DNA from: Escherichia coli
GTDB lineage: Bacteria; Pseudomonadota; Gammaproteobacteria; Enterobacterales; Enterobacteriaceae
Strand: one strand, 5' to 3'
Length of the DNA stretch: 64,000 bases
NCBI RefSeq assembly: GCF_051903065.1
Contig: NZ_CP178438.1
The position numbers and the translations under genes are program-made. How positions within the stretch are numbered: the stretch's first letter is position 1; each line of letters begins with the position of its first letter. The notes under the pieces were generated by a model. The model was not told the origin of the DNA. It saw nothing but the letters and a program-made list of their open reading frames with translations, and searched no databases. This document shows positions 17,142 to 17,632 of the stretch, in pieces.

Positions 17142-17632
17142 TTAGTGGGAAATACATATGAAGCGTGGTGTCCTGCCTGTAGAGAATACGTAGTTGTAAT
17201 CATTTTGACGTGTAACATAAAAATTAATTGAGGTGTCAACTTTTATGAAAAAATCAGAAGTAATATTTTCAAGGATTTCATCACTAATGTTATCATCTTT
17301 TTGTATTTTTTGTATTTTAACAGTGGTGAAATAAACGGTATCACGGAATTTCTTGTATGTAAAACTCACATATCGGCGGATGAAACCCATTTTTTTCCAT
17401 TTACCGTGTATGCACCCGTGAGATACATATTCCCTGTATTATTTTCAGAAATCATATTTAACGAAAAGTATTGATCCATTTTCGTATGATCGGTGAAATT
17501 AATAACATGGGCATTACATGATATGTTTTGCTCTGCTGGTTCATTGGCATGATGAAACGCAATATGGCTCAGAATTGCTGCAATAAAAGCACATAAAATT
17601 ATTCCCGCAAATAGAAAATATCTTTGAGTCAT
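17142..17632 (-). pseudogene. Small membrane-anchored periplasmic protein (ToxS/TcpH-like partner?), apparently frameshifted
   Basis: Track ORFs 17366..17632 (88 aa, N-terminal hydrophobic helix YFLFAGIILCAFIAAILSHIAF) and 17142..17390 (82 aa) overlap in different frames across a homopolymer A7 (plus-strand T7 at 17390..17396); one extra A would fuse them into about 160 aa. Confidence 0.35.

Follow-up and report, generated by a model that had tools for sequence, protein, structure and literature searches.

What is the interrupted reading frame that follows a ToxR-type regulator gene in this stretch of Escherichia coli DNA (64,000 nucleotides (nt) of contig NZ_CP178438.1, assembly GCF_051903065.1; hereafter the window), and how did it come to be interrupted? 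An earlier note, made from the letters alone, had read the two open reading frames (ORFs) at 17142..17632 as a ToxS/TcpH-like partner gene broken at a run of seven A, and had offered decay, a sequencing error or a slippage-prone switch as the cause. We assign the gene to fidL, and in our judgement the break is with good probability a recent inactivation of fidL, a further step of decay in a grvA-fidL cassette that was already dead.

The reading frames were examined on the minus strand. The TAA stop of the upstream ORF (17639..17637) is followed 4 nt on by an ATG (17632..17630), which is preceded by a GGAG Shine-Dalgarno sequence and opens an ORF of 88 codons with a hydrophobic stretch at residues 5-26 (YFLFAGIILCAFIAAILSHIAF). 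The run of seven A (17396..17390) lies within GGAAAAAAATGG, and the stop of the first ORF is reached 8 codons beyond it. The second ORF (17390..17142, minus strand, 82 amino acids) begins at an ATG that takes in the last A of the run. Every detail of the earlier note on these frames held, and it had also predicted that one additional A would join them into about 160 amino acids. Inserting one A fused both ORFs into a product of 163 amino acids that agrees at every residue with what the unbroken gene of the closest relatives encodes (WP_000194264.1), in which the run is A8. The window copy is 491 nt long, compared with 492 nt in intact orthologues, and instead of the uninterrupted frame of a functional FidL/YqeJ member it has a stop after codon 88. 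The parts of the gene are as follows.

17142..17632, minus strand: fidL pseudogene (YqeJ/FidL family, VtrC/ToxS-like co-component), from annotation, orthologue alignments and the repaired translation.
17632..17366, minus strand: 5' reading frame, 88 amino acids, from the ORF list with its translation and the secondary structure of the model.
17390..17396, minus strand: A7 run (T7 on the plus strand; 2448617..2448623 of NZ_AP045800.1), site of the 1-nt loss, from the tract states in 12 loci and a census of 81-mers.
17142..17389, minus strand: 3' portion, out of frame, corresponding to FidL residues 82-163.

The window matches E. coli 23CRST031 (NZ_AP045800.1) without any difference over 8,491 nt, and its single difference from the sister isolate 23CRST027 is a G-run indel inside the insertion sequence IS1. 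In the records of both isolates the NCBI Prokaryotic Genome Annotation Pipeline (PGAP) labels the feature "YqeJ family protein, frameshifted"; the frameshift is thus already annotated in RefSeq, and the cassette and its ToxS-like fold are already published. The repaired protein is identical to ECs_1273 of O157:H7 Sakai ('FidL-like protein') at 161 of 163 positions, the differences being D78N and I82M. The order ycdT/dgcT, EAL phosphodiesterase, fidL, grvA is common to the window and to Sakai ECs_1271-1274, where ECs_1273 measures 492 nt and ECs_1274 (grvA) 813 nt. On this sequence comparison, the frameshifted feature is fidL, the orthologue of ECs_1273 and the partner of GrvA on O island 47 (OI-47).

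A word-indexed protein search found close relatives only, and the family emerged from an exhaustive HMMER search of the representatives of 50% identity clusters, which gave 77 matches at E<=1e-3. Nearly all of them are single polypeptides of 150-165 amino acids, aligned over residues ~12-160. YqeJ of K-12 is a full-length homologue (BLASTP E 3e-17 with 21% identity across 150 residues, and 99.8% by hhalign across 150 columns) in which both Cys residues are conserved, and GrvA is 32% identical to K-12 YqeI over its full length. The Pfam entry YqeJ_C (PF27292) is recorded, as a precomputed match, for a cluster 99% identical to the protein, and FidL is homologous over its full length to the FidL/YqeJ family (YqeJ_C PF27292 / FidL_like PF15941). 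Our own Pfam-A search with the query protein returned no match, and FidL_like matched only 2-4 of 67 family members. NCBIfam held no family for FidL or YqeJ and gave only weak, sub-threshold OmpR/CadC-type matches for the regulator; the PADLOC defence models returned nothing for fidL or the regulator protein.

The position next to a regulator is also that of the family. Directly upstream, with a gap of 4 nt, stands the grvA remnant, from a gene with a Trans_reg_C domain and a transmembrane segment, and O157:H7 and O145 are among those with an intact grvA-fidL pair. At loci L018 and L019, two distant homologues (25-33% identity) lie directly 3' of a Trans_reg_C gene and carry YqeJ_C. At L018 (219..4486 of the metagenome contig SRR28250694_884), the homologue, with 25% identity, is followed by a large autotransporter gene, a layout that echoes MarT-FidL-MisL of Salmonella pathogenicity island 3 (SPI-3).

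In the earlier note, the pair had been placed in a ToxRS/TcpPH/PsaEF-type arrangement, and this was borne out: FidL is a ToxS-type partner of a ToxR-type regulator by synteny with Sakai, by homology to YqeJ, by fold matches and by published work. For the repaired protein, AlphaFold2 with an alignment of 67 sequences gave a model with a mean predicted local distance difference test score (pLDDT) of 95.2. In this model a helix spans residues 2-29, and eight strands and a short helix come after it. Among the 67 sequences Cys39 never varies, and Cys160 is kept in at least 90%. The protein has the membrane anchor, the 8-stranded periplasmic barrel and the Cys pair in the first and last strands of the FidL/YqeJ architecture. 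In a Foldseek search of the PDB, the seven best matches were all ToxS (8u2f, 8alo_B) or VtrC (5kev, 5kew, 8dml), and the periplasmic domain of the model has the ToxS/VtrC fold. A profile of the 67 family members searched against all PDB sequences at E<=10 gave only chance-level matches, with neither ToxS nor VtrC among them, and the structural alignments gave 3-13% identity. Hence the relation of FidL to ToxS and VtrC, as modelled, is one of fold and architecture, without sequence recognition. No solved structure of TcpH was among the fold-search matches; TcpH is placed in the ToxS/VtrC superfamily by Kinch et al. 2022 (PMC9214523). That study lists GrvA/FidL (ECs_1274/ECs_1273) among 'co-component' systems together with ToxR/ToxS, TcpP/TcpH, PsaE/PsaF, VtrA/VtrC, YqeI/YqeJ and MarT/FidL, describes these families as beyond sequence recognition, and sets the disulfide-containing ones apart by a conserved Cys pair. 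From the same study come a model of the GrvA/FidL complex and co-expression data for YqeI/YqeJ.

In the intact system, as drawn from published work, GrvA would be a ToxR-like protein whose DNA-binding winged-helix domain lies in the cytoplasm and is joined by a single membrane span to a domain in the periplasm; it is a characterised regulator, in enterohaemorrhagic E. coli (EHEC), of the locus of enterocyte effacement and of acid resistance (PMC10877973). FidL, anchored in the membrane, would form a lipocalin-like barrel of eight strands in the periplasm and belong to the VtrC/ToxS superfamily; it would pair with the periplasmic domain of GrvA and probably pass an envelope or gut signal on to transcription. 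The GrvA/FidL heterodimer and its ligand binding are putative.

The product of the A7 allele would consist of FidL residues 1-81 followed by 7 out-of-frame residues. It would keep the membrane helix, strands 1-3 and, from strand 4, only residues 80-81; the greater part of that strand would be missing, together with strands 5-8 and Cys160. The missing part lies in the 3' portion, which codes for the bulk of strand 4 (residues 82-96), for strands 5-8 and the short helix, and for Cys160, one of the conserved pair; the A7 allele puts Cys39 and Cys160 in different frames. Judged on the model, the truncated product cannot form the barrel.

The state of the upstream genes bears directly on the cause of the break. 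The earlier note had taken the upstream ORF as a regulator gene; a ToxR-type gene does stand there, but it is not intact, and the ORF of 195 amino acids (18224..17637) is an internal-Met remnant of a gene for 270 amino acids. The elements upstream of fidL are as follows.

17637..18262, minus strand: grvA remnant (codons 64-270 and the stop), from PGAP, the junction alignment and comparison with Sakai GrvA.
18263..19030, minus strand: IS1A, 768 bp, from its terminal inverted repeats and the annotated IS1A transposase.
19031..19144, no strand assigned: fragment of the core gene ycdU, 114 nt, from megablast (2664 genomes match, with ycdU annotated beneath).

IS1 cuts grvA at 18262/18263, where the grvA sequence resumes at codon 64. 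The remnant is without the first 63 codons, which hold most of the winged-helix DNA-binding domain, and without start codon and promoter; its PGAP label reads 'winged helix-turn-helix domain-containing protein, incomplete, missing N-terminus'. It also carries an A8 run (T8 on the plus strand) at 17900..17907, of equal length in the isolate ECNB21-M121. The ycdU fragment lies between IS1 and the region of tRNA-Ser (serX; tRNA-Ser at 19243..19330), and it marks the far edge of the IS1-associated deletion. About 30 kb of OI-47 as found in O157:H7, including an oxidoreductase gene, a fimbrial operon and hemagglutinin/hemolysin-related genes, are absent from the window.

ECNB21-M121 has the identical IS1/grvA junction, yet its fidL has A8. 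Over the 19,031 nt aligned, 4 substitutions and 1 indel set it apart from the window, and the indel is the A8/A7 difference. Therefore the IS1 insertion came first and the fidL frameshift second. The left flank of ECNB21-M121 is different: it has no ycdU fragment and carries an island that bears an integrase, next to a duplicated 3' end of a tRNA. Alleles with grvA inactivated and fidL intact were found in ECNB21-M121 and 23S01245-7, and both genes are dead in 23CRST027/031. An independent loss of grvA with fidL intact was observed at L014 (NZ_OZ197100.1, ~2459..3000), where ~540 nt without alignment stand in place of ~1.1 kb that run from the upstream intergenic region through grvA to a point ~100 nt short of the grvA stop. 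Loss of the regulator seems to come about more easily than loss of its partner fidL.

As the earlier note had proposed, the length of the run was compared in related strains; A8 stands in the nearest relatives, and AAAAAAGA in most E. coli. fidL is present in 410 of 5,426 complete genomes, with one copy in each; the tract was read directly in 12 loci and the census was taken with 81-mers. The exact O157 81-mer, with AAAAAAGA, occurs in 290 genomes, and a further 93 have 95-99% identity to it, the sampled loci L002 and L012 being AAAAAAGA; the G-interrupted tract is thus found in about 383 of 410 genomes. The remaining 27 genomes are below 95% identity, and each member read has an A-only tract. 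Within this lineage, 25 genomes are intact, with A8 in every member read (L004, L005, L007, L010 and L011). A7 was found only in the two sister isolates 23CRST027/031, which hold the sole 491-nt forms among the 410 genomes, and A9 in none of the 27. Five genomes differ from the window fidL by the A7 indel alone. A synonymous change of AAG to AAA leads from AAAAAAGA to A8, and a single further step leads to A7. An in-frame change was also observed: fidL of XJ34 (L015, NZ_CP098231.1, 2501..2983) has a 9-nt deletion that removes one tandem IQK copy (KIQKIQK to KIQK), and it is still open, encoding 160 amino acids.

These comparisons show decay in three steps. First, the synonymous substitution turned AAAAAAGA into A8. 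Second, IS1 inserted into grvA and, with an adjacent deletion reaching into ycdU, removed the first 63 codons, the promoter and the rest of the island. Third, one A was lost from A8 in the 23CRST027/031 clone, presumably by replication slippage. Because its partner grvA was already dead, the fidL frameshift is most likely neutral decay.

Several points weigh against this reading. That the A was lost by slippage, and that its loss is neutral, we infer, and transcription of the remnant is putative only. The change itself is a 1-nt contraction of an 8-base homopolymer, a classic long-read error, and both A7 assemblies come from one project. Between 23CRST027 and 23CRST031, a G run in IS1 varies between G3 and G4, which may reflect run-length noise or real micro-variation; at ~18530 of the window, in insB of IS1, GGGG stands against GGG in 23CRST027, where PGAP marks the IS1 transposase as frameshifted. 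An assembly or base-calling error would mean that the true sequence is A8, undercalled, and the gene intact. The assembly of SCU-316, with A-run expansions at two sites of fidL and a frameshifted grvA, gives an example of such errors. Its fidL (L016, NZ_CP054371.1, 1303..1798) has A5 changed to A7 and, before a G, A6 changed to A8; these indels probably reflect an error-prone assembly rather than biology, and the case illustrates that an indel in a homopolymer of a public genome calls for confirmation by reads. For the window, however, two separately assembled isolates agree on A7, which is the only indel in the 19,031 nt aligned to ECNB21-M121. The 13 other runs of at least 7 nt in 1..19030, including two 8-mers, are of equal length in ECNB21-M121, and no other coding sequence in 49 kb is flagged as frameshifted. 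An artefact is therefore unlikely, although it deserves more weight than any other alternative.

Recoding could in principle restore FidL from the A7 allele, either by -1 ribosomal frameshifting or by an A added through slippage in transcription. A-rich heptamers, like runs of A, are slippery in E. coli; the zero-frame codons here are GGA AAA AAA TGG, the seven A form an X_XXY_YYZ heptamer (A_AAA_AAA), and a -1 shift would read ATG GGT TTC..., the exact sequence of intact FidL. A stimulatory RNA structure was sought in the 70 nt past the run, which folded no better than shuffled sequences (z +1.0). The heptamer is thus present, but a programmed -1 frameshift would also involve a downstream structure and a conserved two-frame arrangement, and both are absent: the split arrangement occurs in no orthologue, all others being in frame. 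The allele is also one mutational step old, and any product would be without a working partner. We regard recoding as quite improbable. A related proposal, that the A7 allele is a leaky pseudogene which keeps a low level of FidL, possibly acting with another ToxR-like regulator such as YqeI, is in our view very improbable; some leakiness is possible, and a function for it improbable.

A slippage-prone ON/OFF switch, in which the A run would reversibly toggle FidL expression, draws on the presence of both A8 and A7 alleles among very close relatives, these lengths being the in-frame and out-of-frame states. The run is not conserved, however, since AAAAAAGA occupies its place in the 290 genomes with the exact 81-mer and the 93 within 95-99%; A8 arose by a synonymous substitution; and the A-only group of 27 comprises 25 A8, 2 A7 from one clone and no A9. 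The conserved slippery tract and the frequent length polymorphism among close relatives that characterise phase-variable contingency genes were thus not observed. Furthermore, with a regulator that lacks its DNA-binding domain and promoter, toggling of FidL has no known output. A switch is scarcely credible at this locus. Finally, the readings as two independent small genes or as spurious AT-rich ORFs, whose sole support is the presence of two ORFs in the raw sequence and which the earlier note had named as refuting its own proposal, were ruled out by orthologue comparison: 408 of the 410 genomes with the locus do not have the 491-nt form, every gene read apart from that of SCU-316 is one continuous frame of 492 nt (483 nt in XJ34/XJ6-3), and homologues down to ~20% identity cover both halves as a single protein, so that the two halves are one gene elsewhere.

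Among the three causes offered at the outset, decay is therefore the best supported, grvA having been decapitated beforehand; the switch is not supported, given the G-interrupted tract of most genomes, and an error is unlikely. Stepwise decay of fidL has little significance beyond correct annotation. It does document how an EHEC-associated grvA-fidL pair decays in a non-EHEC human isolate, through an A8 hotspot, decapitation by IS1 and loss of an A, and the natural alleles (grvA-null with intact fidL, and double-dead) may serve studies of GrvA and FidL. The case also shows that a reading of the sequence alone recognised a ToxRS-type cassette and predicted the exact repair.

Two other features of the window were observed. 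The newest PGAP records give the gene for the EAL phosphodiesterase (pdeT/vmpA; 15430..17040) a length of 1,515 nt, and older records give 1,611 nt; in the window the frame of the longer version is open from its upstream ATG, and the position of the start is uncertain. The RefSeq annotation of the identical record places an IS4 transposase gene at 35246..36574, between yceK and mdoH.

The closest known system is GrvA/FidL of OI-47 in EHEC O157:H7 (Sakai ECs_1274/ECs_1273; z1531 of EDL933 is grvA), an orthologous locus that shares the neighbours dgcT/ycdT and pdeT/vmpA with the window. Compared with Sakai GrvA, the 207 surviving residues in the window differ at 10 positions. In contrast to O157:H7, both genes in the window are dead, grvA by IS1 and fidL by A7, and the remaining island is deleted. 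YqeI/YqeJ of K-12, in the remnant of E. coli type III secretion system 2 (ETT2), and MarT/FidL of Salmonella SPI-3 are paralogous cassettes of the same family; they sit at a different chromosomal site and island from grvA-fidL, and yqeI and yqeJ overlap, whereas 4 nt separate grvA and fidL. The bile-sensing systems ToxR/ToxS of Vibrio and VtrA/VtrC of V. parahaemolyticus have no detectable sequence similarity to FidL, and the FidL/YqeJ group, unlike ToxR/ToxS and VtrA/VtrC, has a conserved Cys pair.
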